A DNA stretch of 47,145 nt from Alistipes sp. (GTDB taxonomy: Bacteria > Bacteroidota > Bacteroidia > Bacteroidales > Rikenellaceae). The stretch spans positions 1-47,145 of the forward strand of contig JAFYSI010000068.1 of assembly GCA_017559425.1 (NCBI GenBank), written 5' to 3'. Shown here piece by piece: positions 7,709 through 45,292 of the stretch. Below the pieces are notes generated by a model that ran no database searches, was not told the origin of the DNA, and worked only from the letters and a program-made list of their open reading frames with translations. Numbering within the stretch: position 1 is the stretch's first letter; each line of letters starts with the position of its first letter. A program made the position numbers and the translations under genes.

Positions 7709-7726
7709 CCTATGTTTACATATATA

Positions 7727-8764: not shown

Positions 8765-8813
8765 TTTTAATGTTGTTTGTTGTGTGTGGGTATTACCCCA
8801 ATTTAATTTTATA

Positions 8814-8847: not shown

Positions 8848-8858
8848 AAAGCAGATTA

Positions 8859-10550: not shown

Positions 10551-10568
10551 ATCGGTTTCTTAATTAAT

Positions 10569-12200: not shown

Positions 12201-12229
12201 CAGTGATGCTAAAGATTTGAAATCTCTTC

Positions 12230-13786: not shown

Positions 13787-13829
13787 AATACTGAAAATTA
13801 AGTTAATGAATTGATTTGATTGTTGTTTG

Positions 13830-15287: not shown

Positions 15288-15299
15288 AGCATTGGTGGG

Positions 15300-26802: not shown

Positions 26803-28617
26803 ATGTCTATGAGTATGAAACTTTACTTCAAACTATTCGTCGCTTTGGTGGCGATGTTTGCTGCTACGGCTTGTAACAATGAGCCTGAACCAAATGGCCC
26901 AAACAACGAGACACCTCTTTGTGAGGTATCGGTCGAGGCAACATCTATTACCGACACAACCCTCGAGTTTCGCATCACATCGAGTGATGCTGACCAGGTG
27001 CGTTATATCTTTACACAGAGCAGTGAGACCTATCCTGCAAAGGAGACTATCTTAGAGCAGGGCACAGAGGTTGAGGCCAACAAGAGTGTGACCGTAAAAT
27101 TTGAGGAGCTCACACCCGATACAAAGTACATACTCCACGTTGCTGGTGCAAACTCAAAATATACAGCATACGCATACCAGGAGGCTGTGACCGAGGAGTC
27201 ACAGTCAAGCGAGCCTACAATCGAGATCGTTGTTGGCGAGGTTGGAGTGAACTCTGCAAAGTTCACTATTACCACTACTAATGCTACAACAGTTAGCTAT
27301 CTTGTATATGATTTGACTTCTGCAGATCCCGAGATGCCTGAGGGTGAGTTGCCAACTACTGAGGAGATCTTCGCTAATGGCAAGACTCTTGAGGCTAACG
27401 TAGCTGCCGAGGTTGAGGTAGACGACCTCCAGAGCGGTATTGAGCATATTATCGTTGTTGCCGCAGAGGGCGAGGGTGGCACAGTTGTAGAGGGCACTAC
27501 ATTTAACACTCTCTTCCCAGCACCTATAATTGCTGCAGCACTCACCGAGGATATTGGTTACGATTATGCCGTATTTAGCATTAGACCAGAGTATGTTACT
27601 GAGCTTAAGTATGTATGCATTAAGGCGGGCACACGCGACGTAACAGCCGATCAGGTAATGAAGAACGGTACTGCCATTGAGCCTATCGATGCTACAGAGA
27701 TCAGGATTGAGGGCCTTGCTGAGGAGACTGCCTACGAGGTATATGTTGCAGCTAAGGGCCTTAATGGCGACGTTGTAATGGAGAAATTGACATTTACAAC
27801 CGCAAAGAATATCATCGTCTACACTATGTCTGATAGCACTACTGCTTCGGCATATAAGTACACCGAGAAAAACTACTATGTAACATTTGTCGACGAGGTG
27901 AATGGCTACACACTCAACGCCGACTTCTATGTTGAGGAGGGTGCAGAGTATCTCACATCGGGCGAGTACACTCTTGCAGGCTTTAACGCAGGCGAGATTA
28001 GTGCAGCATACACATCGTTTATGTTCACACTCACGGACACCTCAACCACAACATTTAGCAGCGGCAGCCTCAACGTTGTTGCAACACCTAACGAGGAGAC
28101 ACGCGAGATCTACTACGAGATTGCTGGTACGCTCTACTTCGCTGATGGCAACTCAGTGGTATTGAACTACTCAGGCCTTGTTGCTGGCATCTCACTCCCT
28201 GAGGTTCAGGAGGGTGCTCCAGAGGGTGCATATGTATTTGTAGTATCGCCCGAGACAAATATGCCTAAGCGAGTGCACGGCTCAAGCCTCCAGGCTGGCG
28301 AGTACTACCTCAAGTTCTACGACTCTAACTGGAACGAGCTCACCCTCGACCTCTTTGTACCACCAACACTCTGCGACAATGGCAACCACGCACTCCCTGC
28401 AGGTATCTACTCAACAGCAGATGGCACGCTCAATACATATAGCAACATCTCGCTCTACAACCCATACTTCGCAGGAAACTTCACCGAGGCAGAGCTTCAG
28501 GTAGACAAAGATGGCGACATATACACCTTTACGCTCCTCGGCACAGTAGTGTCAGGCTCTACTGAGAAGCTTATCTATATGAAATACACAGGAGAGGTTG
28601 CAGATATGGTAAAATAA
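26803..28617 (+). CDS. Acidic surface lipoprotein with three FN3-like repeats and two C-terminal beta domains
   Basis: Lipobox AATAC; repeats LTPDTKYILHV, LQSGIEHIIVV, LAEETAYEVYV; LTSGEY and LPAGIY motifs. Confidence 0.75.
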   Translation: MSMSMKLYFKLFVALVAMFAATACNNEPEPNGPNNETPLCEVSVEATSITDTTLEFRITSSDADQVRYIFTQSSETYPAKETILEQGTEVEANKSVTVKFEELTPDTKYILHVAGANSKYTAYAYQEAVTEESQSSEPTIEIVVGEVGVNSAKFTITTTNATTVSYLVYDLTSADPEMPEGELPTTEEIFANGKTLEANVAAEVEVDDLQSGIEHIIVVAAEGEGGTVVEGTTFNTLFPAPIIAAALTEDIGYDYAVFSIRPEYVTELKYVCIKAGTRDVTADQVMKNGTAIEPIDATEIRIEGLAEETAYEVYVAAKGLNGDVVMEKLTFTTAKNIIVYTMSDSTTASAYKYTEKNYYVTFVDEVNGYTLNADFYVEEGAEYLTSGEYTLAGFNAGEISAAYTSFMFTLTDTSTTTFSSGSLNVVATPNEETREIYYEIAGTLYFADGNSVVLNYSGLVAGISLPEVQEGAPEGAYVFVVSPETNMPKRVHGSSLQAGEYYLKFYDSNWNELTLDLFVPPTLCDNGNHALPAGIYSTADGTLNTYSNISLYNPYFAGNFTEAELQVDKDGDIYTFTLLGTVVSGSTEKLIYMKYTGEVADMVK

Positions 28618-28644
28618 GTATAACCGAAAAAACTATTATAACCT

Positions 28645-30534
28645 ATGAGAAGACTTTTTAATATATCAGCATTGGCACTCGCTCTTGTAGCAATGGTTGC
28701 TACATCGTGCCAGAAGGAGCCTGAGTTTGCAGGCCCTCCATCAGTAAAGATCGAGCTTAAGAGCCAGGAGATTGAGAGTGCAGTATTTAGCGTGACTGCA
28801 ACCAACGCTGCTGAGGTATACTTCTACTGCTCGGAGGACGGTAGCGTACCAAGCGACAGAGATATCGAGAAGAGGGGCGACCTTGTCAATGGCCAGGAGG
28901 TATATCTTTGGGATCTCACACCAGGCAAGGAGTACACAGCATACGTGCTCGCCATTGCGGGCAAGAGTAGTGCTCGCGACAGTGTTACGTTTACCGCCAT
29001 CAAAGAGAACGAGAAGCCAGAACCAGAAAAGCCATTCGAGGGTTATGAGCTCAACAAGATGGTGAGTGCCGTATATCGCAACGACAACTCAGCACTTGCA
29101 GGCAATTACGAGTTCACCTTTGGTAACACCACAGAGCTCGACTGGGATGGTGACATCCAGGTATTTATCGACTTCTACAACGTAGAGGACGAGGACCCTC
29201 TCAACCCAGTGCTTCCAAATGGCGTTTACGAGCCTAACAACGACTTCTCAGCGTTTAGCTACGACCCTACATCGTCGTATGTCGACATCGTGGCTGATGG
29301 CGAGCTTATCACATCGCCAATCCTCGGCACTGTGACCGTGGAGCGTACAGGTGCAACATACACTATCACCGTTGAGGGCGAGCTTATGCTCCTTGACAAC
29401 CTCGCATTCTCGGCACGCTACACTGGTTCAATCCAGTTTGTGCAGGGTGGCACATCGGCTTACGAGTTCTTCGAGGAGGATGTCACAATCGATATGGACG
29501 AGGCTCAGATGCGTTACTGGGGCAGCTGGTTCTTCCCATTCTGCGATGAGGTGGGTGTCGAGATGTTCGACGGTACATTCAACGAGTATGGCACACTGCA
29601 AAAGGGCTACTACCTCCACCTCAGCCGCGTATTTATGCCTAAGTACCACGACTACAACGAGGCAAGCGTACCTCTTGCTGCGGGCCACTACGACGTGGTC
29701 TACGAGGCACTTTCAGATCTCTACTGCCAGCCTTACTTCTTTGATGCAGGTCGCATTCAGGAGTACTTTGGCGACTCATACTTCACTGGTACATACTTGC
29801 AGTATGTCGAAAATGGCCAGATTAAGAAGGTTGGCCTTGTGACAATGGGTTCGTTTGACGTGGAGTACAACGGCAACACTCATAACATCACTATGAACTT
29901 CGTGGCTGACAACGGCGTGAAGATTACGCTTACATACTCTGGTAAGATCAACAGCGTGAACTACAACGACAACGACGAGACTATGCCTGAGCGTCCTTGG
30001 ACAACTCTTGACGGCGACCACGAGTACAACTTCCCAGCCGAGACCCAGGGCTATGCATTCTGCCTTGGCGAGTATATGAAGCCAGGATTTGACAACTGGA
30101 TGCTTATGATCTACGCTACAAATACTCAGTATCCTGACGGCTACGGCGATATGTTCACTACCGAGTTCGTTGTTGAGACTGGCGGCTCACGCTCATCGTT
30201 CCCAACAGGCACATACAACATCGCACTCAACGTTGCAGACCACACAATGTTTACTGGTGTTGTTACCTACGCAGGTACTATTAACTTCACTTGGTATGGC
30301 GACGTGACTCCAGACTTTGAGGGCTACTCATCGGAGACTGCTCCTATCGTTGAGGGTACAGTGACCGTGGAGGAGGCAGAGAATGACAACTACCACTTCG
30401 TATTCGACCTTACTGACGACGGTGGCAACAAGATCACTGGCGAGTGGACTGGCAAGGTGACAGCTGACGATATCAGCGACCAGATATCTGGCTCATCGCT
30501 CAACGCTCCAAAGCCTTTGGCACTTCGCAAGTAG
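28645..30534 (+). CDS. Acidic surface lipoprotein (FN3-like plus three repeated beta domains)
   Basis: Lipobox VATSC; LTPGKEYTAYV; LPNGVY, LAAGHY and FPTGTY motifs. Confidence 0.75.
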   Translation: MRRLFNISALALALVAMVATSCQKEPEFAGPPSVKIELKSQEIESAVFSVTATNAAEVYFYCSEDGSVPSDRDIEKRGDLVNGQEVYLWDLTPGKEYTAYVLAIAGKSSARDSVTFTAIKENEKPEPEKPFEGYELNKMVSAVYRNDNSALAGNYEFTFGNTTELDWDGDIQVFIDFYNVEDEDPLNPVLPNGVYEPNNDFSAFSYDPTSSYVDIVADGELITSPILGTVTVERTGATYTITVEGELMLLDNLAFSARYTGSIQFVQGGTSAYEFFEEDVTIDMDEAQMRYWGSWFFPFCDEVGVEMFDGTFNEYGTLQKGYYLHLSRVFMPKYHDYNEASVPLAAGHYDVVYEALSDLYCQPYFFDAGRIQEYFGDSYFTGTYLQYVENGQIKKVGLVTMGSFDVEYNGNTHNITMNFVADNGVKITLTYSGKINSVNYNDNDETMPERPWTTLDGDHEYNFPAETQGYAFCLGEYMKPGFDNWMLMIYATNTQYPDGYGDMFTTEFVVETGGSRSSFPTGTYNIALNVADHTMFTGVVTYAGTINFTWYGDVTPDFEGYSSETAPIVEGTVTVEEAENDNYHFVFDLTDDGGNKITGEWTGKVTADDISDQISGSSLNAPKPLALRK

Positions 30535-31260: not shown

Positions 31261-31291
31261 CAAAGCTACAATAATTCGCCAAATAAACAAA
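31261..31291 (-). promoter_or_regulatory. HAD gene promoter ending 4 nt before the ATG
   Basis: Minus strand TTTG-N19-TAGCTTTG-tact-ATG. Confidence 0.65.
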
Positions 31292-31293
31292 AA

Positions 31294-31322
31294 TGGAGAC
31301 ATCCGTCATACAGATATCTCCA
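31294..31322 (-). terminator. Terminator of the DUF4493/PCMD operon
   Basis: Minus strand TGGAGATATC...GATGTCTCCA followed by TTTTTG. Confidence 0.7.
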
Positions 31323-31345
31323 CTCTTATAATAGTAATATCTCGC

Positions 31346-32944
31346 TTAGTAGACGAGCTCAAAGTCGTCGACAAGCATCAAGCTCTGTGTTGAGCCAGTA
31401 AAGTAGTCACCAAAGCGTGAGCCTGTGCAGATGATGATAATGTGTGTAGGAACCTCATCTGTTGAGCGGTAGTCGAGCGGAAGGGTGAACTCCACCCAGC
31501 CATCTGTCGACTCTGTAAGAATCATCTCGCCAACACCGATAACATCCTTACCTCGAGGGTTGAAGAATGTGCTCTCGATCTGCGTATTCACCACCACAGG
31601 GCAGTCATCACTACCGCCATACTCCGCGGCAGTCCAATTACCAACAGCGATAACAATCTGACCCTCGTCCGAGTCACCCTTCTTAAGCTCAGGGCGTGCC
31701 GAAGGGATCTTGCCCACCTCGTCGATAGTACCACAGTTGTACTTCACCCAACCGTGAAGAGCCACAGGACGTGCCGAGCAGGGACGACCGAAGTTAACAA
31801 GACCGTTAGTACCCTGAAGGCCTCCAAACTCACCAACGAAGATGTTACCAGCGGCAAACTTACCAAGACCCATAAGCGTAGCCTTCTTAGACTGGAGCGA
31901 AGCAGCATACTGACCCTCACTTCCAGGACGTACATCAGAGGTAGCCTCGGTGAGCGTAGTACCCGCAAGGGCAGCACCATCGTTACCAGTATTCCAGAAT
32001 GGGGCAGAATCGGCAAGGAATGGATAGACCACATTATTCGCTGTCGACCACTCCTCGAAGCCAGCATTAGGCAACACAAAGATGCTCTCGGTCTTTACAG
32101 TAACAACCTCCGTAAAGTGCTCGCCCGAGTAGGCAACAACCTCATAGTCGGTCTCGGTATCGAGGTTAGCAACGCAAGCAGTAAAGCTACCGCCATCGAC
32201 CTTGACATCCTCAACCTCTCGCCACTCATTAGCACCCGCCTCTCGGTACTTGAAGCCGAGCTCAGAGTCGGCACGACCATTGGCCGAGAGCCAGATACGC
32301 TTAGCCCACGCATCAACGGCAGTAAACTCAACCTCCACGTCGCGACGCTCGAGACGAAGCATCCAGTTCTCGGTGATGTCACCGTGGTAGCTAACGTCGA
32401 TATAGCGTGCCGTATCGTTGAAATTGGTGAGCTCACCAAGCTCAAGCGAGTAGGTGGTGATATCGCAAGGACCGAGCTTAAGGGCCGAGACAACGACATT
32501 CTCAAGGTCGAAATCCATAGGTACAAAGGCCGTAGCGATATGGTTCTCGGCATCGATTACCGACTCACCAATCTGACCATCCACCTTGAAGTAACGCTCA
32601 ATCTGCTGCGATGCCGATAGCGTCCACTCCCACTCCTGGTACATCTTCAATGTGAAGTAGAGTGGAGTGCGAAGGTCGAAGTAGGCGGGGAAGGTAACCG
32701 ACGAAGTAGCACCCTCGCTAAGCTCGACCTTAGTGACGTGCACACGACGAATATCGGTAGTCTCCTCGAGCTCGAGCTTCACACTCTTCGACGATGCGTC
32801 GATTGTAGCTGGCGACTTAAGGCCCTCAGCCTCGAAAGTCAAGATGTCGAGCTTTACAACTGGATAGGGGACATCGTTCTCAATGCAGCCCACTACAAAA
32901 AGTGTAGCAATGGCCACAAACAGATATCTAAAATACTTAATCAT
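31346..32944 (-). CDS. PCMD (putative carbohydrate metabolism domain) lipoprotein
   Basis: Lipobox FVVGC-IENDVPYP; LPNAGFEEW, FWNTGN, GKFAAGNIF, FGRP, C-terminal GDYFTGS..SLMLVDDFELVY. Confidence 0.82.
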   Translation of the reverse strand: MIKYFRYLFVAIATLFVVGCIENDVPYPVVKLDILTFEAEGLKSPATIDASSKSVKLELEETTDIRRVHVTKVELSEGATSSVTFPAYFDLRTPLYFTLKMYQEWEWTLSASQQIERYFKVDGQIGESVIDAENHIATAFVPMDFDLENVVVSALKLGPCDITTYSLELGELTNFNDTARYIDVSYHGDITENWMLRLERRDVEVEFTAVDAWAKRIWLSANGRADSELGFKYREAGANEWREVEDVKVDGGSFTACVANLDTETDYEVVAYSGEHFTEVVTVKTESIFVLPNAGFEEWSTANNVVYPFLADSAPFWNTGNDGAALAGTTLTEATSDVRPGSEGQYAASLQSKKATLMGLGKFAAGNIFVGEFGGLQGTNGLVNFGRPCSARPVALHGWVKYNCGTIDEVGKIPSARPELKKGDSDEGQIVIAVGNWTAAEYGGSDDCPVVVNTQIESTFFNPRGKDVIGVGEMILTESTDGWVEFTLPLDYRSTDEVPTHIIIICTGSRFGDYFTGSTQSLMLVDDFELVY

Positions 32945-32950
32945 AGCCTA

Positions 32951-33769
32951 TTACCTCTTTTTGTTCCACAAATGTGCCACCAGACCGATCTGAATGTCGG
33001 CAAGGTTGAGCTTAAACGACAATCCCGCACGGTCTCTGCGACCAAGCTCCTGACCAGCGATATCAAACTGGCGAATATTGTTGTAGTAGAGACCACCAAC
33101 GCCAACAGTCACCGTAAGACACACCTGGGGGAATACATAGACACCCAAACCTGGGTTGAAGTTAAGGCGTGCCGCGAAGTTGCGACTATCGCTGCGAGTG
33201 TCGCCACTCCACATAGTGGTAGAACCGCTCTTGAAGAGGAGCTCCGCCTCCATAATAACGCCCACAATACCACGACGATCCAGACCAATATAGTTGCGGT
33301 GGAACACCGACCACATAAAGTTCTCGTTGCGAAGGCTTACGTCCGAAATACCGATGTTATCCATATCGGCAATAAGGCCGAGGTTGACATCTGCATTGCC
33401 AAGATTGCCATCGATAAGCTCATAACCAAAGCGAATACCTGCAGCGAGGTTATCGCGATAGGAGTAGGCAAAGAATGGCTTTACAGTGGCCTGGCTAAGG
33501 CTGAGATTGATGTTGTCCAAGAGGAGCATAATGTCGGCATCCTGCGACGAGAGGCTACCGTACGAAGCGGTAAGACCAAGCATATACTCACCCTTATACA
33601 CGAACTTATTGCGGTCGATATTACGATCGATACGCTGACGTTGAGGGAGGAATCGTCCCTTCTGCTCCACGACAGAGTCCTGTGCTATAGACAGTGTCTC
33701 TGCAGCCTGAGCACCTACTGCTGTGAGCGACAACGCAGCAGCGAAGAGTAGAATAATATATTTTCTCAT
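32951..33769 (-). CDS. Outer-membrane beta-barrel protein
   Basis: Signal peptide, alternating amphipathic strands, paralogous to the neighbour (VYKGEYMLGLTASY vs VPKGQWILGGTASF). Confidence 0.72.
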   Translation of the reverse strand: MRKYIILLFAAALSLTAVGAQAAETLSIAQDSVVEQKGRFLPQRQRIDRNIDRNKFVYKGEYMLGLTASYGSLSSQDADIMLLLDNINLSLSQATVKPFFAYSYRDNLAAGIRFGYELIDGNLGNADVNLGLIADMDNIGISDVSLRNENFMWSVFHRNYIGLDRRGIVGVIMEAELLFKSGSTTMWSGDTRSDSRNFAARLNFNPGLGVYVFPQVCLTVTVGVGGLYYNNIRQFDIAGQELGRRDRAGLSFKLNLADIQIGLVAHLWNKKR

Positions 33770-33781
33770 AGTGCTGCGATT

Positions 33782-34591
33782 TTAGAGGTAGAACGACATA
33801 CCAAAGCCCACAGAGAGCAGGTTTAGCTTAAAGTTGGTATCAATCTGCTTGATCTCAGATTCGAAGATATTGTTCTTCGTCTGCTGCGTGCGGTCGAAGC
33901 CGACACCCAAGACACCAATAGATAGCTCAACAGCAACATCGTTAGTGACAAAGGCCACGATACCTGGCTGAAGGGCAACCTGTGCACCAAACTGGCGAGC
34001 ATAGGTGCCTCGATAGTTCTGATAGCCATCGATAACATTGCTTGCAGCAACGGCCTTTGACTGACCACCCGACAGGTTGAGCTGAACCTCAGCAAAGAAT
34101 GCAAAACGGTTGCTATGTCCCAGCGGGATATATGGTCGCCAGAAGAGCGAGCCTACATAGGTGTGCTTGAGCTGGTGGAACATATCGATCGTAAGCTCCG
34201 CACCCGACACCGAGAGGGCTGCGTTGTCGATAGCAAGCAGCGAACGCGAATAGCCAAAACGGAGACCTACAGCCATATTCTTCCACGCTGCATAGCCAAT
34301 CATAGGACTTACATTGACGGTATAACCCTTTGAGTTGATGCCGTTTATGAGCGTAAATTTATAGTTATCGTTGCGATGTGCCGAGAACGACGCAGTACCA
34401 CCAAGAATCCACTGACCCTTGGGCACGAAGCAGTCGTCAGAGACAAATCCTCGATGCTCACGAGCCTCAGCAGGCGTAAGCTCCAGGGACTGCGTATCCG
34501 CCGATACCTCTTGAGCCACCACGTCACTCTGCTGAGCAAAGAGGGGAAGCGACAAGGCAAGCAACAGAAGTGTTAAATAGATTTTCTTCAT
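33782..34591 (-). CDS. Outer-membrane beta-barrel protein
   Basis: Start moved to ATG 34591 (MKKIYLTLLLL signal); amphipathic strands; C-terminal SVGFGMSFYL beta-signal-like. Confidence 0.75.
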   Translation of the reverse strand: MKKIYLTLLLLALSLPLFAQQSDVVAQEVSADTQSLELTPAEAREHRGFVSDDCFVPKGQWILGGTASFSAHRNDNYKFTLINGINSKGYTVNVSPMIGYAAWKNMAVGLRFGYSRSLLAIDNAALSVSGAELTIDMFHQLKHTYVGSLFWRPYIPLGHSNRFAFFAEVQLNLSGGQSKAVAASNVIDGYQNYRGTYARQFGAQVALQPGIVAFVTNDVAVELSIGVLGVGFDRTQQTKNNIFESEIKQIDTNFKLNLLSVGFGMSFYL

Positions 34592-34605
34592 CAAAATAGA
34601 GTATT

Positions 34606-34639
34606 GAGATAGTGGTACTCCGAAGAGCCCCACTATCTC
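34606..34639 (-). terminator. Intra-operon hairpin between lipoprotein genes and barrel genes
   Basis: GAGATAGTGG...CCACTATCTC perfect 10-bp stem; no strong U-tract. Confidence 0.6.
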
Positions 34640-34648
34640 GCAAGTTTA

Positions 34649-36682
34649 CTAATAGTTTAGCACAATATCATCGACATACATCCACGACTCTGTAGAGCCG
34701 CAGAAGTAGTCACCATAGCCCGAAGGTGTGAACGATACCACAATCTTCTTAGGCTTCTGGTCCTTCATATCCTCGCGGTATGTGATGTTGATGGTCTCCT
34801 CAGTCCAATTAGCACGCGAGTCGCTACCAGTGATGTAGCCGTAGCCGATAACACCTGGTGTTGTTGCGAGCTTATCGAGCTTGATGAACGAGCTCTCATC
34901 CTTAGTGTTCACAGAGAAGGTAGTACCATCGGTGATGATAACCATCACGGTGTAGATATCGGTACCCGATGCGTGTGAACCCTGGTCGATAGTACCCTCA
35001 TTGTTCTTCATCCAGAACGATAGGCTCTTAGGCTTGGCGGTGTACTCAAAGTCACGACCGAACGTAACGATACCATCCATACCGCTGAGCATAAAGGTAC
35101 CTGTGAAGAGGTTACCCGCAGCAAACTTACCGATACCCATCAACGACGCAAACTGCGACTTGAGATGTGCAGAGTACTTACCTGCAGAGCCTGGACGAAC
35201 ATCTGTTGATGACTGAGTAAGTGTAGCACCTACCATATTACCACCCTCATTACCTGTGAGCCAGAAAGGAGTATCACCCTGGCCATATGGGAGCACCCAC
35301 GATGCTGTGTGCCAACGCTCCATATCGCCATTAGGCAACTCGGCACCTGCAGCAGTGGCGATAGAGAGGTTCTTACCCTTATCCTCGTTATCGACAACGA
35401 GCTTATAAGCATAGGTTGTCGCAGCAGAGAAGTTGTTGAACTCAGCAACATAGTTGCCATCATCGGTCAACACTGCATCAACTGTCTGCCACTCACCGCC
35501 ATTTGCACTATAAGCAACCTTAACGCTCGATGGGTTACCGAGTGCCACAGCCTTGAACGAAGCACGGCCAAACCAGAGGTCGTAGTCGGCAGCTGTCAAT
35601 GGCAACACGCCCTGAACCTTGTAGATGACGCTCTTCGACATCTTACCGCCATCGACATCCTCGATATGGAATGCGACAGCCTGCTCACCACCCGAAATCG
35701 TGGTGAAGAACGATGATGAGATAACAAGCGAGTAGGTCATATCGTCGCTCTTGGCAAGTGTAACACCCTCAGGAACAGAGTTCAAGAGGTTGTACTCCAC
35801 GCCATCGACTGTCATAGTCATAACGTTGATGGCTGCCAACGACGCGATGTTATACTTGCGAGACTCTGTAGAGAGCTGCACCTCGCCAACATCGAAACCA
35901 TCGCCCAAGATTGTTGGATCAGGGCTGAAGATCATAGTGTCGTCGTACTCCTCGATAGTCTCGTCGACAGTAGCCTCGAATACGAGGTTACCTGGAGCAT
36001 CCTTCGAGTACTTGAGCGTGATGGTGTACTTTGCCGCTGGCTTAACGTTCTCGATAAGGCCCTCCTTGACAATGTCGCCCTCTACGGGATGAGTACCCTC
36101 GAAGTGCCAGTAGAGCGATGTCTCGCCCTCAGGCATCATAACATAACCCTCGCGACTCTCAGCGAATGTCAAAGAGAGGATGTCGCCAGTAGCGATTAGA
36201 GAGGCATCGTACGAGTCGGCAATTGCAACAGTTGTGAAGTAGCCCTCAGAGAGCTTCTCAGCAACGGTAGCGTCGTAGTTAACAGCAACGATTGTTGACT
36301 GGAGCTTGCAGTCGACAGTGACGTGAGTCACAACGCCAGCCTCAACAGCAAAGTCTGTCTGGCCATAGTAGTACTTATCGTCGAACGAGACTGCCTGCTT
36401 CTTACCCACCTGCACCTTAGCAACGTAGTTACCCTCGAGGAGTGCGAGGTACTCTGGCACATCTGCAACAGCATCGTAGCGGCGGATGAGCTTCTCCTCG
36501 TCGGCCTCCACCTTATAGACCTTGATAACTACATCCTCTGACGCAGCATCGGCCTTGAGAGCAACACCGAGACGCATAGCACCCTCGCCAACGGCCATCT
36601 CAGCAGTCGAATCTATATCGTTTGAGCAAGATGCAAGAACGAGCATCGCACTCAACAGCATAATAAGCTTTTTCATAGTCAT
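34649..36682 (-). CDS. DUF4493-like plus PCMD lipoprotein (677 aa)
   Basis: Lipobox VLASC; LLEGNYVAKV...YYYGQTDFAVEAG..VTVDCKLQS (DUF4493-like); PCMD C-terminus GKFAAGNLF...GDYFCGS..SWMYVDDIVLNY. Confidence 0.78.
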   Translation of the reverse strand: MTMKKLIMLLSAMLVLASCSNDIDSTAEMAVGEGAMRLGVALKADAASEDVVIKVYKVEADEEKLIRRYDAVADVPEYLALLEGNYVAKVQVGKKQAVSFDDKYYYGQTDFAVEAGVVTHVTVDCKLQSTIVAVNYDATVAEKLSEGYFTTVAIADSYDASLIATGDILSLTFAESREGYVMMPEGETSLYWHFEGTHPVEGDIVKEGLIENVKPAAKYTITLKYSKDAPGNLVFEATVDETIEEYDDTMIFSPDPTILGDGFDVGEVQLSTESRKYNIASLAAINVMTMTVDGVEYNLLNSVPEGVTLAKSDDMTYSLVISSSFFTTISGGEQAVAFHIEDVDGGKMSKSVIYKVQGVLPLTAADYDLWFGRASFKAVALGNPSSVKVAYSANGGEWQTVDAVLTDDGNYVAEFNNFSAATTYAYKLVVDNEDKGKNLSIATAAGAELPNGDMERWHTASWVLPYGQGDTPFWLTGNEGGNMVGATLTQSSTDVRPGSAGKYSAHLKSQFASLMGIGKFAAGNLFTGTFMLSGMDGIVTFGRDFEYTAKPKSLSFWMKNNEGTIDQGSHASGTDIYTVMVIITDGTTFSVNTKDESSFIKLDKLATTPGVIGYGYITGSDSRANWTEETINITYREDMKDQKPKKIVVSFTPSGYGDYFCGSTESWMYVDDIVLNY

Positions 36683-36703
36683 AATCTCCTATATTTAATT
36701 ATG

Positions 36704-38356
36704 CTACTCGAAACGCATCATAACGGTCTTGGTAGTTGTGTTACCCTCCATATCGGTCACGGTCATCACGAAGTCGTGGTCGCCAGTACCGAGCATTGAG
36801 AGAATATCCAAGAAGTTAGTGATGTTGAGCTGGTCCTCTGAGATGAGTGTCTGGTTGTAGACATCGTCACCCACAGGGAAGCCAAGACCTGAGAGGGCTG
36901 TAAACATCTCAGTAGAAGTAACAAGGCTGAACTTGGCAGCAAGACCTACAGCCTCGAGCTCCTGAGCGTTGAGTGTCAACGATACAATCTCAATCTCGAA
37001 GTCCTTGATAGCCAAAGGTGCTGTAATGCGAATCATACAAGTATCCTCACCTACGGTGATTGTCTGACGCTTGTCGATGTCGTAGCCAACCCACTGAATC
37101 TGAGGCATAAGATTCTGACCATACTTAACAGTGAGGGTAGCTACTGTGCGAGCACCAAGCTCGTTGGTAACCTCAATCTGGTAAGAGTGTGTACCCTCGT
37201 ACATCTTGAGCAATGCTGCCTGAGCGGCAAACTTAAGACGGGTAGAGGTCTGGCCCTTAACATCGGTTGGGTAACCCATCATCTTGAGGATAGCAGCCGA
37301 GGATGCAGGAGCACACAAATCCTCCTCGAGAGACATAATCTCAGAGTATGCCTTCACGAAGTCAGCATTGTCCGACTCTGCCTTAACAACGAGCTGTGTG
37401 ATAGGGAGTGTTGAGGTGATATCGAGGTTGATGCTCGACTTGAAGTTACCCTCAGCATCGAACATCTCGTCGGTAAGCTCGAATGGAGCGTTGAGGTCGT
37501 GACCCTCCCAAACGATTACTGGAGCATCAGAGTCATCTGGAATAACCTCCTCGAACAACGACATAGAGCTATCGAAGTTTACCTCCTCGTCGTAGGTCCA
37601 AGTGTCGCAACCGATACCGATAGTGGCAGTACCATCAGCTGCGTGCTGAACAACGACGTTGATCTTACGCCACTGAGCAGCCTTAACACCCTTGATCTCG
37701 TTGGTCATTGTGATATCCTTAGTCTCGCCCACATAGCGGCAGTTGAAGGTGAGCTTCAAGGTGTTCTCCTGAGCGATAGGCTCGAAGAAGCCTGCACGCT
37801 CCTCGGTAAATGCGTACTCGAGAGAGCTTGTGCCGAGCTCAACGGTCATCTTGGTGTACTCTGGGTCGAGCTGGTCCTTGATATCGGCAGAGTAGGCTAC
37901 AGAGACCTTGATATTTGCGAGCTTACAGACAAAGTCCTTAACAGTGGTTGTCTGCTTGCGGGTGATGATAACCTCCTGCTCGGCAGAGTATACTGGAGAC
38001 TCCCAGCCAGCATTAGTCATATCAGCTGACGACATAGCAATGCGGTAGACACCCTGCTCCAAGGCGATAGGCTCCTCAGGAAGCTCGCCATACTTGAACG
38101 ACTTGACAGCGTCGCCCTTGGCATCGGTAATCACCACATCGAAGTTGTTGATATCGACACCCTCGGAGCGAGTTGTAGACTCGACATTCTCGGTATCCTC
38201 CATTACTGATGCCTGCATACCCTCGAACGAGAGGTAGCCGACACTATCCTTAGCTGCAGCGTTAGGGTCAACATAGTCGACCTTCTCGTGACCACAAGAG
38301 CCGAGGGCAAGGATTGTTGCCACTGCAAGGCTCATAAATTTTACTACTGATTTCAT
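36704..38356 (-). CDS. DUF4493-like lipoprotein (550 aa)
   Basis: Lipobox ALGSC, TTR/SE, LEQGVYRI..S...AGWESPVYSAEQ..I...CKLANIKVSV. Confidence 0.8.
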   Translation of the reverse strand: MKSVVKFMSLAVATILALGSCGHEKVDYVDPNAAAKDSVGYLSFEGMQASVMEDTENVESTTRSEGVDINNFDVVITDAKGDAVKSFKYGELPEEPIALEQGVYRIAMSSADMTNAGWESPVYSAEQEVIITRKQTTTVKDFVCKLANIKVSVAYSADIKDQLDPEYTKMTVELGTSSLEYAFTEERAGFFEPIAQENTLKLTFNCRYVGETKDITMTNEIKGVKAAQWRKINVVVQHAADGTATIGIGCDTWTYDEEVNFDSSMSLFEEVIPDDSDAPVIVWEGHDLNAPFELTDEMFDAEGNFKSSINLDITSTLPITQLVVKAESDNADFVKAYSEIMSLEEDLCAPASSAAILKMMGYPTDVKGQTSTRLKFAAQAALLKMYEGTHSYQIEVTNELGARTVATLTVKYGQNLMPQIQWVGYDIDKRQTITVGEDTCMIRITAPLAIKDFEIEIVSLTLNAQELEAVGLAAKFSLVTSTEMFTALSGLGFPVGDDVYNQTLISEDQLNITNFLDILSMLGTGDHDFVMTVTDMEGNTTTKTVMMRFE

Positions 38357-38371
38357 ATCTTTAGCTTCGTT

Positions 38372-39133
38372 TTACTGTGCATTATCATTGAGCTCCTGCT
38401 CGATATCGATAGACTCTACGAGTGTCTCGTTAAGAGTGATGTTGAGCGTTGCACTACCAGCAGTCTCAACGTCGAACTTCACGGTGTAGAGTGTCTGGGC
38501 CTTGACATCGCTCTGCTTAAACTCTAGCAAGGTGACTGTAACACCCTCCTTACCCGATTGTGCCGCCTGCTTAACAGCAGTACCAACAACAGAGAACTCT
38601 GCTGGGGCGATGAACAACAACTCCTCCTGAGCTGTTACGTCGAACTCGTTGCCCGCAGCGGTTGTAAGTGTGAAGGTGTGGCCCGCAGCAAAGTAACGCT
38701 CGAAGTTCTCAGTGGTCTCGACCTTGACAACGGCGTTGGCGATTGTCGCTGTGATGGTGACATTGGTGTTGGCACGAGGCTCAACAGCAAAGGTCTCACT
38801 ACCCTCGAAGGCAACACTGCCGAAGCCCTCCTTGCGAACGTCACCAGCCTTCACTGAGGCCTTGTACGAGCCGAAGTAGAGGTAGTTGTCCTCGAACTCA
38901 GCGATAGAGGCGTACTCAGCCTTGTAGTCGCGGCCACCCTCAATTGTAAGGGCGAAGTCTGCCCACTCAGGGGTTGTGCAGCTGATGTTGGCACGAGTAT
39001 CGGCAACCTCAGCGGATGTCACGAGGCTGATGTCAACTCGTCCCTTGCCCTGCTGCTCGCCCTCCTGCTCCTTCTCAGCACAAGCCGAGAGGGTCAGTGC
39101 AAAGAGCGATGCAATTGCAAAAAACTTTTTCAT
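38372..39133 (-). CDS. DUF4493-like lipoprotein (253 aa, single domain)
   Basis: Lipobox TLSAC, DTR/AN, GSYKASV..G...EGF...FEGSETFAV...ATIANAVVKV. Confidence 0.78.
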   Translation of the reverse strand: MKKFFAIASLFALTLSACAEKEQEGEQQGKGRVDISLVTSAEVADTRANISCTTPEWADFALTIEGGRDYKAEYASIAEFEDNYLYFGSYKASVKAGDVRKEGFGSVAFEGSETFAVEPRANTNVTITATIANAVVKVETTENFERYFAAGHTFTLTTAAGNEFDVTAQEELLFIAPAEFSVVGTAVKQAAQSGKEGVTVTLLEFKQSDVKAQTLYTVKFDVETAGSATLNITLNETLVESIDIEQELNDNAQ

Positions 39134-39160
39134 AACGTCTTGATTTATTTTAATTTATAT

Positions 39161-40963
39161 TTATTTCGAGATAGAAACCCTTATATTGTCGAGATAGACA
39201 TTCACCTCGGTATTACCCGTACCCGACGCAGTAGTGAGCGTAGGATAGAAGACAAGTCTCGTATCTGAAGTAGCAGGCATATCGCCGCTAAAAGTTGGGA
39301 AACTCTTACCAAAATCATTGTCGCCAGCGTTGTCTGCCAATTCTATATTTATGAAAGTTGTACCGAAGTCGGCAAGCGTAGTATTGTATGAAGAGGAAAT
39401 ACCTGTAGAACCCGTTGGGATACCATCAATGGGGTTCGAAGCATTTGTATGCGTTGCAACATTAATTTCACCTTTGGTAAGCGATAGTGAGCTGCTTGTG
39501 TGCTTATACAACGCAGCGTCGAAATCCACCTTGATGTTTACACTCGCACCAGGCTTGAGGCCTCGCGAGCCATTACCGAGTCGAGGGGTATCGAGACGAC
39601 CATAGTGGTACGATGCGAACGCCACAAAAATCTTTACGGACTGGTAACGTGAGTTGATACGTGCAGCACCTGGCTTAACCCAGATACGTGCACCATTCCA
39701 ACCCGACAGAGCACCACTAAGTGCAAGACCTGGCTGCTCACGCTCACTCGCTTCGTATTTGTTGTTACCATAGCTCTCCTGCTCCGTTGCATCGTTGAAG
39801 TCCTCGAACAAGAGGTAAGGGACATCGACGGGGGTGACATCCTGTGCAAAGTATGGTCGGAGAGTACCCAAGTTCACTGAGTTCTCGACAACTGCATTAT
39901 CTGTGTCGAAGACAAGAGTCCAATTTGAGTTATTATATGGAGTAACATCGAACTCGCCGTAGTACTCCCAAGTGTACTTATTCTCGGCATTACGATAGTA
40001 AGTACCCATATTGGTGCCATTATTATCGTAGAGTGTGAAGAAGTTGAAATCCTCGCCGAGGTAGTTCTTGCCAATCGAGAAGTTGAAGGCTGTATACTTC
40101 TCGAATGGAGGCATAGCCATACGGATAGGTGTGACGTGGCCACGACGGAGCTCACGCTCGAACGAGTATGTAGCAACCTCGGAACGCTGCTCAAGGCCAG
40201 TAATCTTGTAGCTCACATCGCCCGACACGGTGCCTGGAAGCACAAAGACCCAGATGTCGCTACCCACCTCGAAGCCCTCGGCACTAGCCACGGTGATGGT
40301 ATTAGAGGTGTTTGTGTAGGTAGGCTCGCCATTGGGGTTTGCAACGTCGAGGGTCACATCGCCCACAACAGCATTAGGGAAGGTAATCTCAAGGCGGTAT
40401 ACCCTACTATCGAAGTTCGAGGCCTTCTCGGGTACGGTAATCTTGAGGGCGTGCATCTGGTGACGCATCACAGTATTTAGTTCAACCTTCTTTGATGCTG
40501 TCAACGCCTCAGCCACGACAGGCTCGGCAATCATAATGTCGTAGCCACCCTCATACATACCCGACTGCACGGCAGGGAGCGTATAGGTAGCCTCGGTGCC
40601 AACAACGGCCTTAGGCTCTGGATAGCTGAGGTAGTAGGTGTACTCACCATCTGCCATCTCAGCGATGTTAGAGGTGAAGTATGCCTTGTCGTAGCTCTCT
40701 GAGTAGTAGCGGAGCATAAACTTGGTGTTCTCGAAGGCGAAGCCATCAGCACCCTCGGCCCATACATAGAGCCTATCACCCTCGCTCCAACGTGTGGTCT
40801 TGCCATCGTCAGCAATCGACGTACGCGTAGCATCGACAGCGAGCTCGAAGCCTACCTCGCCAATCTCGGCAGTGGCAGCAGAGGACTCCTCCAGAGGAGT
40901 ACTACACGCACCAGCAATCAACGCACATCCCACGAGAGAGGCAATCTTTGTAAAAATGTTCAT
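39161..40963 (-). CDS. Fimbrillin-family lipoprotein with C-terminal beta-sandwich domain
   Basis: Start moved to ATG 40963 (MNIFTKIASLVGCALIAGAC lipobox; TATCTTTG promoter at 40988-95 upstream); ATR/TS..DGK..WSEGDRL, SYP, LPAVQ, DIM, MRHQM fimbrillin motifs. Confidence 0.78.
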   Translation of the reverse strand: MNIFTKIASLVGCALIAGACSTPLEESSAATAEIGEVGFELAVDATRTSIADDGKTTRWSEGDRLYVWAEGADGFAFENTKFMLRYYSESYDKAYFTSNIAEMADGEYTYYLSYPEPKAVVGTEATYTLPAVQSGMYEGGYDIMIAEPVVAEALTASKKVELNTVMRHQMHALKITVPEKASNFDSRVYRLEITFPNAVVGDVTLDVANPNGEPTYTNTSNTITVASAEGFEVGSDIWVFVLPGTVSGDVSYKITGLEQRSEVATYSFERELRRGHVTPIRMAMPPFEKYTAFNFSIGKNYLGEDFNFFTLYDNNGTNMGTYYRNAENKYTWEYYGEFDVTPYNNSNWTLVFDTDNAVVENSVNLGTLRPYFAQDVTPVDVPYLLFEDFNDATEQESYGNNKYEASEREQPGLALSGALSGWNGARIWVKPGAARINSRYQSVKIFVAFASYHYGRLDTPRLGNGSRGLKPGASVNIKVDFDAALYKHTSSSLSLTKGEINVATHTNASNPIDGIPTGSTGISSSYNTTLADFGTTFINIELADNAGDNDFGKSFPTFSGDMPATSDTRLVFYPTLTTASGTGNTEVNVYLDNIRVSISK

Positions 40964-40987
40964 ATACAACTCATATAAATTAGGCCA

Positions 40988-40995
40988 CAAAGATA
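40988..40995 (-). promoter_or_regulatory. -7 element (TATCTTTG) of the DUF4493/PCMD operon
   Basis: TAnnTTTG 24 nt upstream of ATG 40963; -33 element weak. Confidence 0.55.
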
Positions 40996-41052
40996 ATCGA
41001 AACTTTCTCTCGGGAGAAATAAATTCAACGAACACGACTATTTGTAACACAG

Positions 41053-41090
41053 AAAAGGGACTATCGCACCCATTTGGCACGATAATCCCC
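41053..41090 (-). terminator. Intrinsic terminator after the BACON-like gene
   Basis: Minus strand GGGATTATCG...CGATAGTCCC followed by TTTT. Confidence 0.7.
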
Positions 41091-41129
41091 CATTTCTAAG
41101 GACCAAAGTTTAACTATTTGGCCTTTTTG

Positions 41130-43433
41130 CTATCTTTTCTCGAAGGCTACTCCACGCTCTCGAACGAGCCTCTCGACGACAGCTACACCCTTGTTAGGAG
41201 CTGCTGGGTCGAGGTAGGTGTGGTCTTGAGCCGAGCGAGTAATCTCGCCGAGATAGTAGTCCACGAACTCCTGAGCATCGCCCGCACCCTCGCGTGTGCA
41301 GATGAAACGCTCACGATACACAGGACTTGGGTTGCCCGCCTTGTCGAAGGCTACTGCGGCAATCATCATCTCCACATCCCACTGGCCACGGAAGTAGGCT
41401 GGCGACCAGTTAGCACCCACGTTGTAGAGGTTGTCGATAAGAGTATTATCGCTAAACTACTCAGGGTCCTCCAAGCCCTCCTGATAGGTGAAGATGGTGT
41501 AGAGGTAGCCACCGTAGTCGCCATCGATCTCGACGCTCATAGGTAGAATCACCTGACCCTGATAGTTGCTGAAGTACTGAGGGTTGATGGCATAGACCTC
41601 GTCGCCATCGTAGTAGGCATCGAAGCCTGCGGTGATACGGATGTCGGCAATGACAGCCTCGGCAGTGGTGAAGTAGCCACCCTCACGCATCGAGCCAGTA
41701 TAGGCGAAGCGGTCGGCGTGCATAGGGATGATAACGATCTTGTAGTCGGTATCGGGCGTGAGCTGCGAGAGGCGGCTCTCGACCTTGCCCTGTGCGAGCT
41801 CGTAGTAGCTGAACTCCCAGTAGTCGCCATAGTAATAGCCCTTGAGCGAGTTCTCGATGTAGGCCTTCACCTCATCCTCCGTAGCATCGGCCTCGAAGAC
41901 ATTCCAGTAGTACCAGATGCTGTAGTCCGAAGGGTTGATAGTGACGCGAGCCTCGCGGTCGTCGATGTCGCTAATCTCGATGTCGTAGATGCAGGCATCC
42001 ACAGCACCCGGCTTGAGGGTTGTGATATCCTCGCGAGTGATCTTCGTGGTGAGCGTACCGGCCTCATAGCCAAAGAGCAAGACGGCATACTCGGTGTCGG
42101 CCTCCATACCGCTGAACGTACCCTCGATGTCGCCCTCGAAGATGTAGTTGTAGAGGAACGACGTGCCGTAGTTGTTGAGGATATGTTTGAAGATTGCCTC
42201 GTCGCCTCGTAGCTTTGTGAGCTCCGACGCTGGGATGGCAACGATGGCGTATGGGTCGTTGTTGGTGGTCGAAATCTTGACGTAGAATGTCGACTGGGTA
42301 ACATCCGAGAGCTCCATAGAGAGCTGGTTGTCGGATGGTGGGATTGTGCCAATCTCGAACTCCGCGAATGAGACCTCACTCAGACGCTCGCACTTCTCGT
42401 TCCACTTGCAGGCAAAGGCAATATACTTGGTGTTGGCCATACCCTCGAACTCGTAGGACGTAGCCAGGTAGTCGGTGTTGTACTCAAAGGTCTCGCCGAG
42501 GGTGTACTCCCAGTAGGCGTAGTCCTCGACCATATCGGCAATTACCGCATCTGCAGCGACGTTGATATCCTTCGCGTAGAGGGTCTCGAAATCCTCATAG
42601 GTGATGAGGTTGTTGTAGTAGGCCACACCCTCGTGCGATGGGGTGATGGCGATGTGGGCAATGGCACGCTCTACGGTGATGTCGAAGTCGAACGTAACGT
42701 CGTTACCCTGGTAGGGGGCAGTCGTGGTGAAGGCCTCGGAGTAGATAGATGTGGTCTTCTCGCCCACGGTGTTCATACCGTAGACATAGACTACATACTC
42801 CCACTCTGGGTCAAGACCGTTCATACGCAGTGACGAGTGTGAACCCTTGCTAAGCGTAGTGGTGAGGTACTCCTCGAGCGACACGCCACCCTCCTCGGCC
42901 ATAGCGTAGTAGTAACGTAGATCCTCGTCGAAGATATCCTCCTCGCTCATAGCATCGAACCACGCCTTGTCGACAATCTGGCCTATCCAAGTGGTCTCCT
43001 CACTGAGTGTTACGACGCTAAACGTAACAGCCGTAGCCTCCACCCTATCGACCGTAATGACAAGAGGTGCTTCCCACGCCTGCTGGCTGAGTGTCAATGT
43101 CTTAGTATCGTTGCCATAGCCAAGCGTAAGCTTTGTAGTACGCTCATTGGCAGTATCGTTCTTAGCCACGGTAAGGTCGAAGAATGAGCCAGTGACAACA
43201 TCGACAGACACCCACTCGGCACTGCACGCCACCTCGAGCTGTACGCCCTCCGCGGGCTTTGCAATAGAGTAGTTAACACGGAGCGTCTCGCCCTCAGGCT
43301 GAGCCTCCAACGCCTCGACATAGAGCACGACATTGCTCGACTCTGTCGCGGGATCCTTCTCGCACGACACGAGCATAACTGCGAGTGCCACAACAGCTGT
43401 CAAAGCACCACGCATCAATGATAATAGTTTCAT
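41130..43433 (-). pseudogene. BACON/FN3-repeat lipoprotein interrupted by one in-frame TAG at 41457-41459
   Basis: Lipobox MLVSC, BACON-like (SAEWVSV...VAKNDTANERT), FN3-like repeats; frame continues EDPE*FSDNTLIDNLYNVGANWSPAYF... to the stop at 41130. Confidence 0.75.
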
Positions 43434-43453
43434 AATATGGTTAATAAAGTCTT

Positions 43454-43488
43454 TAGGCTGAAAGTTACGATGGGGAACTCTCAGCCTA
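43454..43488 (-). terminator. Hairpin between the two BACON-like genes
   Basis: TAGGCTGA...TCAGCCTA inverted repeat. Confidence 0.5.
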
Positions 43489-43510
43489 TAGATATTAAGG
43501 AAATTAGTGA

Positions 43511-45292
43511 TTAGCGCTTGTGCATCAGCTTAGCTGCTGGTGAGAGCGACTTGTTCTTAAGGCCGTGGTGAGCACCTCTCTTAGCGGCGAAAGTCTGTGC
43601 CTGGTTAGGGTCGACGCCTGTCCAAGAGCCGTAGATGTTGTTGCCAGCATCGTCGTAGGCATCAATCTCGATGGTGAAGGTAGTATCGCCATTGTTGGTG
43701 ATGTAGATGTCGCCCTCAACGAGTGGAGCATACTGTGTGAGGTCGGCATTGAAGTACCAGCTACCCTCCATATAGTCACCATTTGCATAGCCTGGGTAGG
43801 CAGTAAACTTCTCAAGGCTGTTGCTGATAACATACTCGCCTGAGAGCTCATACAAGCCAACATCGTTCGAGAGAAGGTCGAGCTGCAAGCCGTCACCAAC
43901 ATCGCCATTAGGCATAAGGTACAAAAACCAATTGTCATAACCTACGTCGTAGTAGTCACCATACCAAGTGTAGTCCATCGAGCAGCCGCTGAAGTTGCAG
44001 TACCAGTCCTCCCACAATGTTGAGAGAATCTCGTCGCTGCCACCGCCACCGCCAAACTCATCTGAGTAGTCTGCGATGTTGGTCACCACGCCCTCGAATG
44101 TCACGTTGTGGTGTGTGCCATCCTCGGCAACGAGGTCGGCAACGATGCCATCTGCATCGACGGTAAGAGTACCCTCGACGAAGTATATCTCCTCGAGATA
44201 GTCGTTGGCGTACTGATCCATAAGGATGTATCTGGTGAATGAAGCACCGATGGTGTTTGGCAGACAAGTGTCGTAGAGGTCGAATGAGTAGGTGCCGTGA
44301 GGGATTCGCAACTCGCCATCGACAACCTCGGTGTAGAGGTCGAAGAGGTAGTATGAAGCATCGGGAAGCTCCCAGCCATTCTCATCCAAGCCCAAGTCGC
44401 TGAGCACGATGGTGAAGTTGTCGGCAACACCTGGATTGTAGTAGTCGCCCATATAGTTTGCCACAGCATACTCTGCAGCAAAGTGTCGTGCCACATCATT
44501 ACCCGCACCGCGAGCATCGACAATAGCGAGGCTACCAGAGTAGGTCACGGTGTGCTGCACGCCACAGATAACGACAGTAAGGGTGACACCCTCGGCAGTC
44601 ACAACAAGGTTACCTGACTCGTAGTACTCGTTCTCCTCGACATCGGTAGCACCCGTCTTGTACCACTCTGAGTACTCGGCAGAGAATGTACCCGCAGCAG
44701 ATGAGTTGCTCGCGTCGAGCACATACTCACCAAGAGGGAGTGTGACATAGCCATCGCTCTGGCCGTCGAACAACTCGCCATAGAGGTCAACATAGTAGTA
44801 AGTAGAGTTTGGAAGGAAGTCCTCCTCGCCCTCGAAGCCATTGTCTGTCAAGCAGATGTAGTAGTTGCCATCCTCCGAGTACTCATCGCCAAAGTAAGAG
44901 CCTCGCAACATCTGAGCCTCGAAGACAACGCCCTCGGCACGCTCAACGCCCGACTGCTTAACGACAACCTCCTCAACCTGACCGAAGAGCTCAAAGCGGA
45001 TGACCGCCTCGCGAGGCTCACCCTCGTTCTTGGCTACAGAGAAAAGAGAGCCTTGGCCGCAGGCAATCCACTCAGCCTCGGTAGTGAGCGTTGGCTCAGC
45101 TGAACTGAGGCGAGTAACCTCCTGCCACTCCCACTCGATTTGGCCTTCGCCACCCTCTGCGGGGAACTCCATAACCTTGTTAGAGGTGATCACGAGCTTA
45201 TACTCCTTCTGTGCAGGGTTGTCATCAGGCTGCTCGGTACACGCTGCAAATACCAATGGTAGTGCAACGAAAAGATAGAATAGTCTTCTCAT
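43511..45292 (-). CDS. BACON-domain acidic lipoprotein with three repeated beta domains
   Basis: Lipobox VFAAC; FPAEGG...EAEWI...VAKNEGEPREA...VKQSG; LPLGEY, IPHGTY and LSGEY motifs. Confidence 0.78.
   Translation of the reverse strand: MRRLFYLFVALPLVFAACTEQPDDNPAQKEYKLVITSNKVMEFPAEGGEGQIEWEWQEVTRLSSAEPTLTTEAEWIACGQGSLFSVAKNEGEPREAVIRFELFGQVEEVVVKQSGVERAEGVVFEAQMLRGSYFGDEYSEDGNYYICLTDNGFEGEEDFLPNSTYYYVDLYGELFDGQSDGYVTLPLGEYVLDASNSSAAGTFSAEYSEWYKTGATDVEENEYYESGNLVVTAEGVTLTVVICGVQHTVTYSGSLAIVDARGAGNDVARHFAAEYAVANYMGDYYNPGVADNFTIVLSDLGLDENGWELPDASYYLFDLYTEVVDGELRIPHGTYSFDLYDTCLPNTIGASFTRYILMDQYANDYLEEIYFVEGTLTVDADGIVADLVAEDGTHHNVTFEGVVTNIADYSDEFGGGGGSDEILSTLWEDWYCNFSGCSMDYTWYGDYYDVGYDNWFLYLMPNGDVGDGLQLDLLSNDVGLYELSGEYVISNSLEKFTAYPGYANGDYMEGSWYFNADLTQYAPLVEGDIYITNNGDTTFTIEIDAYDDAGNNIYGSWTGVDPNQAQTFAAKRGAHHGLKNKSLSPAAKLMHKR

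Follow-up and report, generated by a model that had tools for sequence, protein, structure and literature searches.

A cluster of seven minus-strand genes (g1 to g7) in a 47,145-nucleotide stretch of Alistipes sp. DNA (contig JAFYSI010000068.1; the whole stretch is called the window here) may encode a short surface stalk assembled by strand exchange between neighbouring gene products. The encoded proteins are, in gene order, a lipoprotein of 600 amino acids (aa), three lipoproteins of 253, 550 and 677 aa, two small barrels and a lipoprotein of 532 aa; with Pfam, DUF4493 (PF14900) is found in the 253-, 550- and 677-aa proteins and PCMD in the 677- and 532-aa proteins. By sequence, the pairing of strands within loci favours a heteromeric stalk of fixed order (677→550→253→600) over a homopolymer fibre. 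We consider it an even call that the operon makes a short fixed-order strand-exchange stalk, g4→g3→g2→g1, with branching cargo, on a base of the barrels and g7. A fuller version is put forward more tentatively: a fixed-length branched type V mini-pilus in which three to four compact pilins zip in gene order, with cargo sideways, on a dedicated 8-stranded barrel pair with a lipoprotein resembling surface glycan-binding proteins (SGBPs). Alistipes-like bacteria and many other gut Bacteroidales would then have it as a near-core organelle of their surface.

Type V pilins have an N-terminal anchor strand and are cleaved in the loop that follows it, and donor strands replace the anchor strand of the next subunit; tips are without donors, and the free donor C-terminus of Mfa1 is reported to be essential (PMC13655056). 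A surface clostripain is named as the pilin protease in Bacteroides in a review (PMC12632263), and BfrT, a pilin of B. fragilis, has been shown to be cleaved at R43 (bioRxiv 10.1101/2024.11.15.621889). The earlier note, made from the letters of the window alone, had proposed a pilin-like fold for DUF4493, and this is where structure prediction led. An AlphaFold model of g2 from 150 sequences has a predicted local distance difference test score (pLDDT) of 92 and a predicted template modelling score of 0.85. A wide structural search with this model gives pilin or putative-adhesin structures from Bacteroidales/Porphyromonas (Z 7-9) in all of the top 10 rows and in 22 of the first 24, headed by BDI_3522 (3r4r; Z 9.0, root mean square deviation (rmsd) 3.2, 184 aligned) and with BACEGG_00536, Mfa3 and Mfa2 among the further top matches. 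FimA prepilin aligns to model residues 11-219, spanning both domains, and the top 10 rows of a Foldseek search and a second structural comparison agree with the type V pilin fold (Z up to 9.4). DUF4493 is predicted on this model of g2 to be a compact two-domain pilin, consisting of two transthyretin-like beta-sandwich domains. Sequence searches of the PDB with DUF4493, g1, g4 and barrel queries gave nothing significant, and a g2 search of the ESM Atlas yielded DUF4493 clusters and nothing else.

Among 401 genomes of the order, 44 were found to have PF14900, against 0/14 control genomes. Of the 43 other positive genomes, 40 were fetched for a locus survey; 26 of these have at least two DUF4493 genes, and a barrel or g7 ortholog is also found in 23 of the 26. 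A barrel pattern matched 344 relatives in GTDB, and among the best 80 of the 344, which were fetched, 76 carry DUF4493, 70 a g4-type gene and 71 a g7-type gene. Two layouts recur: type A (Alistipes/Rikenellaceae), with the order g1-g2-g3-g4-barrel-barrel-g7, and type B (Bacteroides, Phocaeicola and Barnesiella), in which a DUF4493 fusion of about 840 aa stands in for g1 and g2. Within the window's genus, barrel matches occur in 140/150 genomes, mostly two per genome, and the exact seven-gene order is found in 77 of 100 loci fetched from barrel-positive genomes, the other 23 comprising two with an extra upstream PCMD gene, nine with the barrels inverted upstream and 12 that are partial or different. 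The set that the earlier note had treated as one system is conserved as a unit. The operon is also encoded in the cultured gut species Bacteroides acidifaciens, Phocaeicola plebeius and Alistipes hominis. The proteins of g3, g4 and the 840-aa gene are paralogous well beyond the DUF4493 domain. The DUF4493 domain of the 840-aa protein is closest to the g2 class (24% vs about 20-21%), and in a tree the short and 840-aa DUF4493 domains are not one clade, though they are mutually closest classes.

The lipobox Cys, which identifies lipoprotein precursors, is invariant in two alignments whose locus rows were trimmed to begin at this residue. A TR motif lies 27, 29 and 42 residues past it in g1, g2 and g3, respectively, and none is found in either PCMD protein of the window (g4 and g7). 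The asymmetry that had been read from this contrast stands in the window and is weaker in the family as a whole: in the window's g4 the anchor strand ends with a Lys (LK/A), and g4 orthologs usually have T[RK]. A basic motif after the anchor strand was counted in 24/31 short, 58/74 420-class, 54/67 PCMD-class (g4 orthologs, T[RK]) and 36/42 840-class proteins, compared with 6, 14, 17 and 8 in shuffled sequences, and is near the shuffled level in the g7 class (16/64, shuffled 13) and in other lipoproteins (14/73, shuffled 12); near-identical proteins were removed, one to six per class without a parsed lipobox were left out, and the pattern was written post hoc. In a second set of 70 non-redundant new loci of the genus (85 of 100 were complete and 15 near-duplicates were dropped), an Arg or Lys anywhere in the loop is present in 67/70 g1, 70/70 g2 and 70/70 g3 proteins, and in only 56/70 g4 proteins, having been lost in 14, including most of the window's nearest relatives. 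In the clade to which the window's g4 belongs the cleavage motif is often absent, and the frequent loss of the loop Arg/Lys in the g4 class fits a position at the base.

Anchor and donor strands of all classes have a G-x-h-x-h-x-h-x-h pattern in common. The C-terminal strand of the 253-aa protein, and its echoes in the 550- and 677-aa proteins, are present as had been described and are donor-like. An aromatic kink (Trp/Phe/Tyr) is found in the g3-class donor in 66/70 genus loci, and Mfa1 has the like. Only in g2 is the donor strand free-ended; in g3, g4 and the 840-aa protein it is internal and followed by cargo. In g3 the donor strand is followed by an acidic linker and probably two related beta domains, the internal repeat being weak (21% identity, E 0.055). 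Covariation of Cys and Trp between the kink of the g3-class donor and upstream position 129 follows two lineages and is only a lead; the counts in 68 rows, a few of them misparsed, are C/C 24, C/non-C 1, W or Y/non-C 16, W or Y/C 3 and other 24. Cys at the donor kink together with upstream Cys 129, as in many type B loci, could form an inter-subunit disulfide, an idea confounded by lineage.

The first protein had been called a member of the fimbrillin family. The window's g1 itself has no Pfam match, and the assignment holds through its relatives, as 7/28 aligned orthologs match Fimbrillin-like PF13149 (best E 3.7e-14). A g1 profile matches the short DUF4493 class across 212 columns, those of the signal peptide among them (probability 94.8%, E 5e-8). 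A C-terminal head of unknown family lies beyond the g1 pilin region and TR/T loop, and by sequence the pilin region passes straight into the next domain with no donor strand or motif. This architecture fits a donor-less type V tip pilin with an extra head, making g1 the candidate tip.

Resemblance of donor and anchor strands within a locus is expected under strand exchange because the donor must fit the groove vacated by the acceptor's anchor strand. Such resemblance was compared with that in permuted loci, the pairing of each gene with its upstream neighbour being expected beforehand. In a first set of 64 loci, the g3-class donor matches the upstream anchor with z 4.8 and the g4-class donor matches the g3-class anchor with z 5.4, each ranking 1/193 windows, whereas self pairs rank 71, 30 and 166, and self and reverse pairs together span ranks 8 to 166. 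Both expected pairs hold inside type A and inside type B. With one locus per cluster, z values for g3→upstream and g4→g3 are 5.9 and 3.6 (72 clusters), 2.8 and 2.9 (36 clusters), and 1.1 and 2.4 (17 clusters). The second set gave z 2.9 for g3→g2 and z 2.9 for g2→g1 (ranks 8 and 3 of 204). At the level of sequence, the case for donor pairing is fair for g3→g2, mixed for g4→g3 and weak for g2→g1.

If the operon instead made a long type V pilus of the canonical kind, in which g2 formed the repeated shaft, g1 the tip, and g3 and g4 minor or anchor subunits, this would account for the free conserved donor end and cleavage motif of g2, and for the fimbrillin-like, donor-less g1. However, no resemblance of the g2 donor to its own anchor strand is seen (z 0.0, n=70; z 0.5 in the first set), while a positive control of 22 Mfa1-family proteins has a self signal of z 3.5 (rank 1/100). 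In addition, the free-ended short DUF4493 subunit is missing from 50/54 type B loci, and in the 401-genome survey type B genomes with three PF14900 matches have all three in long frames in one cluster. A canonical fibre appears improbable, and the filament that had been envisaged from the sequence is not supported as one built by repeating a single subunit.

Assembly of an ordered stalk would be triggered by cleavage of the Arg/Lys loop, a surface clostripain being the probable protease. The anchor strand of g3 would then be replaced by the internal donor of g4, and that of g2 by the g3 donor. The free strand of g2 would enter the fimbrillin-like g1, which, being donor-less, would cap the tip. 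Past the internal donor strands, the cargo domains (PCMD heads among them) would stand out as branches, with all subunits but one carrying their own cargo. In Bacteroides-type loci, the single ~840-aa protein would fuse a head directly and replace g1 and g2. At the cell surface the stalk would probably serve in adhesion or in the sensing of glycans rather than in import.

Several observations weigh against such a stalk. The g3→upstream pairing drops to z 1.1 in the sparsest clustering (17 clusters), g4→g3 is not replicated in the genus set (z 0.8, rank 69/194) and is not rescued there by a bulged register of the g3 anchor, and g2→g1 gives z 0.0 in 16 loci of the first set, and 2.4 (rank 12/204) when the sets are combined. 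The background z has a standard deviation of 1.2-1.8, and only the first-set z values are clearly above noise, because other registers, chosen post hoc, gave z 3.3-3.6 for the unpredicted g4 self and g3 self pairs. The donors of g3 and g4 are without the free C-terminus reported as essential in Mfa1, and in the 840 class a donor-like strand is conserved although no acceptor for it is evident. In many genomes DUF4493 occurs in a single gene, fused to a lamin-tail domain (LTD) or other cargo, with no partner. The Z-scores of the g2 fold (8-9) are only modestly above background, and the one RNA run is uninformative on expression (0.07 of words, mostly from diverged contigs).

In a rival explanation there is no inter-subunit exchange, and self-complemented, lipid-anchored DUF4493 stalks that display cargo form a patch, surface-layer-like or adhesive, at or close to the barrels, similar to BT1926/BT1927. 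This fits donor strands that are internal and without a free C-terminus, and lone genes for DUF4493-LTD or DUF4493-endonuclease proteins. It also fits the AlphaFold monomer of g2, in which the donor pair is placed as ordered strands in blocks at pLDDT 85-92, and the combination of an 8-stranded barrel and a lipoprotein, which is the layout of BT1926/27 (PMC12578637). The near-universal Arg/Lys loop, the match of anchor and donor patterns, the neighbour-specific mimicry and the strict gene order are, however, left unexplained, and we regard self-complemented stalks as unlikely, though less so than the canonical fibre. Outside the operon, DUF4493 is fused to Lamin-tail, Endonuclease I or DUF6359 in loci L048, L056, L058, L062, L065, L066, L069 and L071, and L069 has two DUF4493-endonuclease genes near a TonB-receptor-like gene; DUF4493 may be a general surface-display module. 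Short DUF4493 proteins in L051, L054, L050 and L052 end before the donor strands and are possible acceptor-only caps. In L067 (9891-11851) a DUF4493 gene is directly followed by a DUF3575 barrel gene, of the family found beside the window's canonical mfa locus.

The base of the stalk is probably formed by the two small barrels and g7, judging by analogy; this is proposed because g5 to g7 are co-conserved and evolve more slowly (median 47-49% identity vs 34-38% in 50 loci), and by comparison with BT1761 and BT1926/27. That the system has barrels of its own was already suggested by the earlier note, and it does: g5 and g6 are paralogous, and on its model g5 is a predicted 8-stranded, OmpA-like outer-membrane barrel, small and with long extracellular hairpins, best matching the OprF barrel (Z 14.1, rmsd 2.5, 134 aligned). 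The g7 protein comprises two Ig-like N-terminal domains, an Fn3-like domain and a PCMD head, with no DUF4493 domain and no basic motif. Its N-terminus resembles the SGBP BT1761 over the first 200 profile positions (E 1.8e-8 by profile; 0.003 by single sequence), so by its sequence matches this 532-aa protein is SGBP-like rather than pilin-like. The C-terminal PCMD jelly-roll of g4 and g7 matches BT2081-type structures (E 1e-25 to 1e-21). In the levan utilisome, the N-terminal Ig domain of BT1761 sits on the barrel lip (PMC7618045).

A transporter-less glycan-processing module, with PCMD catalytic or capturing glycans for a SusCD elsewhere and the pilin-like domains as spacers, would suit the SGBP-like g7 and the resemblance of PCMD to carbohydrate-binding modules and glycoside hydrolase family 16, catalysis having been proposed and not shown for BT2081 (PMC2954218). 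As had been noted from the sequence, however, there is no SusC or SusD among the 28 window proteins (by Pfam) or 21 sampled neighbours; no immediate flanking gene of the operon recurs in 120 loci, and an 8-stranded barrel would be too narrow for glycan import. This module is the least probable of the alternatives considered.

Compared with known type V pili (P. gingivalis FimA-E and Mfa1-5, and Mfa-like operons of Bacteroides), the operon has the same lipoprotein precursors, predicted pair of transthyretin-like domains, anchor strand, Arg/Lys loop, donor-like strand pair (with the Trp kink in the g3 class) and donor-less tip with a head. It differs in its much smaller pilin domain (about 225 aa), in the internal position of the donor strand in most subunits, with cargo after it, the free C-terminal donor being confined to g2, in having no evident repeated shaft and a fixed order of three to four paralogues, in being near-core in the genus, and in its own barrel family in place of the DUF3575/DUF3868 pair beside the window's mfa locus. 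The PCMD domains are above the Pfam cut-off and are like those of the BT2081 family (PDB 3HBZ, 3S30, 4JRL, 4HET), but are fused to pilin-like or SGBP-like stalks. With BT1761 (PDB 8A9Y/8AA2) g7 shares lipidated tandem Ig-like N-terminal domains and a distal predicted binding-type head, but the operon is without SusC/SusD and the only barrels available are 8-stranded. The surface-layer locus BT1926/BT1927 of B. thetaiotaomicron similarly encodes a surface lipoprotein together with its proposed anchor, a predicted 8-stranded barrel (PMC12578637), and differs in that the operon has pilin-like paralogues and no inverted repeats at its promoter.

A full-text literature search for DUF4493/PF14900 found no paper, its coverage not extending to subscription papers or to the paper that founded the type V pilus class, and PCMD receives incidental mentions only; this is in keeping with the earlier remark that no functional characterisation was known. 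That DUF4493 is missing both from the literature covered and from each of the 14 control genomes may explain how it was overlooked. DUF4493 would now be given a fold and a testable mechanism. If internal donors work, the rule of a free C-terminus in type V strand exchange would not hold generally, and multi-cargo surface complexes of defined make-up could be built by this kind of exchange. Being near-core in the genus and encoded in cultured gut species, the system is directly testable.

The seven genes are co-oriented in the order originally described, with short intergenic gaps of 27, 15, 21, 57, 12 and 6 bp (Table 1). The start of g1 was refined to 40963, giving a protein identical to the database-called one, and that of the first barrel to 34591. 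The single upstream -7 element and the terminal terminator, both seen at the outset, are confirmed: TAnnTTTG, which we take to be the Bacteroidota -7 consensus, is found in the 150 bp ahead of the first gene in 70/79 same-genus loci, compared with 2/79 in-gene controls. The hairpin after the 677-aa gene is present in the window but is local, and was rejected as a conserved regulator since g4 and g5 overlap or nearly abut in many of 60 relatives. A phase-variable (invertible) promoter, a feature of BT1926/BT1927 surface-layer loci, was looked for and not found, there being no inverted repeats around the promoter in 40900-41700.

Table 1. Features of the operon and its borders (window positions).
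Feature	Position	Strand	Basis
Terminator of upstream unrelated lipoprotein gene, bounds operon	41055..41091	-	z -4.3
TAnnTTTG promoter element	40988..40995	-	sequence match, genus-wide enrichment
g1, 600-aa lipoprotein, candidate tip	39161..40963	-	sequence, ortholog Pfam, profile match
g1 TR/T loop	40820-40828	-	
g2, 253-aa DUF4493-only lipoprotein, candidate adaptor	38372..39133	-	Pfam, predicted model, motifs
g2 anchor strand	39017-39043	-	
g2 TR/A	38990-38998	-	
g2 free C-terminal donor-like strands	38396-38458	-	
g3, 550 aa, DUF4493, internal donor-like strand, cargo	36704..38356	-	Pfam, alignment
g3 anchor strand	38207-38239	-	
g3 TR/S	38165-38173	-	
g3 internal donor-like strand with Trp	37571-37633	-	
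g4, 677 aa, DUF4493, internal donor-like strand, linker domains, PCMD, candidate base subunit	34649..36682	-	
g4 internal donor-like strand	35927-35992	-	
RNA hairpin between g4 and g5	34607..34639	-	z -4.0
g5, 269-aa predicted 8-stranded OmpA-like outer-membrane barrel	33782..34591	-	predicted model, structural match
g6, 272-aa barrel, paralogue of g5	32951..33769	-	25% aligned identity to g5
g7, 532-aa lipoprotein, SGBP-like N-terminus, PCMD head	31346..32944	-	Pfam, profile matches
Terminal intrinsic terminator	31287..31329	-	z -6.0

A separate canonical type V locus lies at 410-15896 (-) of the window, with a DUF3575 barrel, a DUF3868/TPR protein, three Mfa1-family pilins, an Mfa2 anchor, a FimD-like tip and two further lipoproteins; further Mfa1-like and DUF3575 copies are on contigs C138 and C127. 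A clostripain-family (C11) lipoprotein at 25360-26550 (-) is a candidate pilin-processing protease, and a second is encoded on contig C83; across 120 loci the C11 gene is not conserved beside the operon. The operon is flanked, at 26803-30534 (+) and 41457-45292 (-), by two pairs of acidic BACON/Fn3-type lipoproteins, which have no relatives in the fetched loci. In L130 (Bacteroides finegoldii JCM 13345) the operon lipoprotein genes are in many fragments, which may be pseudogenes or sequencing errors. A second PCMD module often adjoins the operon in Bacteroides and Phocaeicola, consisting of a PCMD lipoprotein, an OMP_b-brl_2 barrel and calycin-PCMD proteins (L109:206-3563; L101; L134). In L103 a 496-aa PCMD protein is encoded downstream of g7, as a neighbour rather than a core operon gene; it has a six-residue stretch in common with a Bacteroides caecimuris PCMD peptide that is a reported regulatory T cell antigen (PMC13648455).

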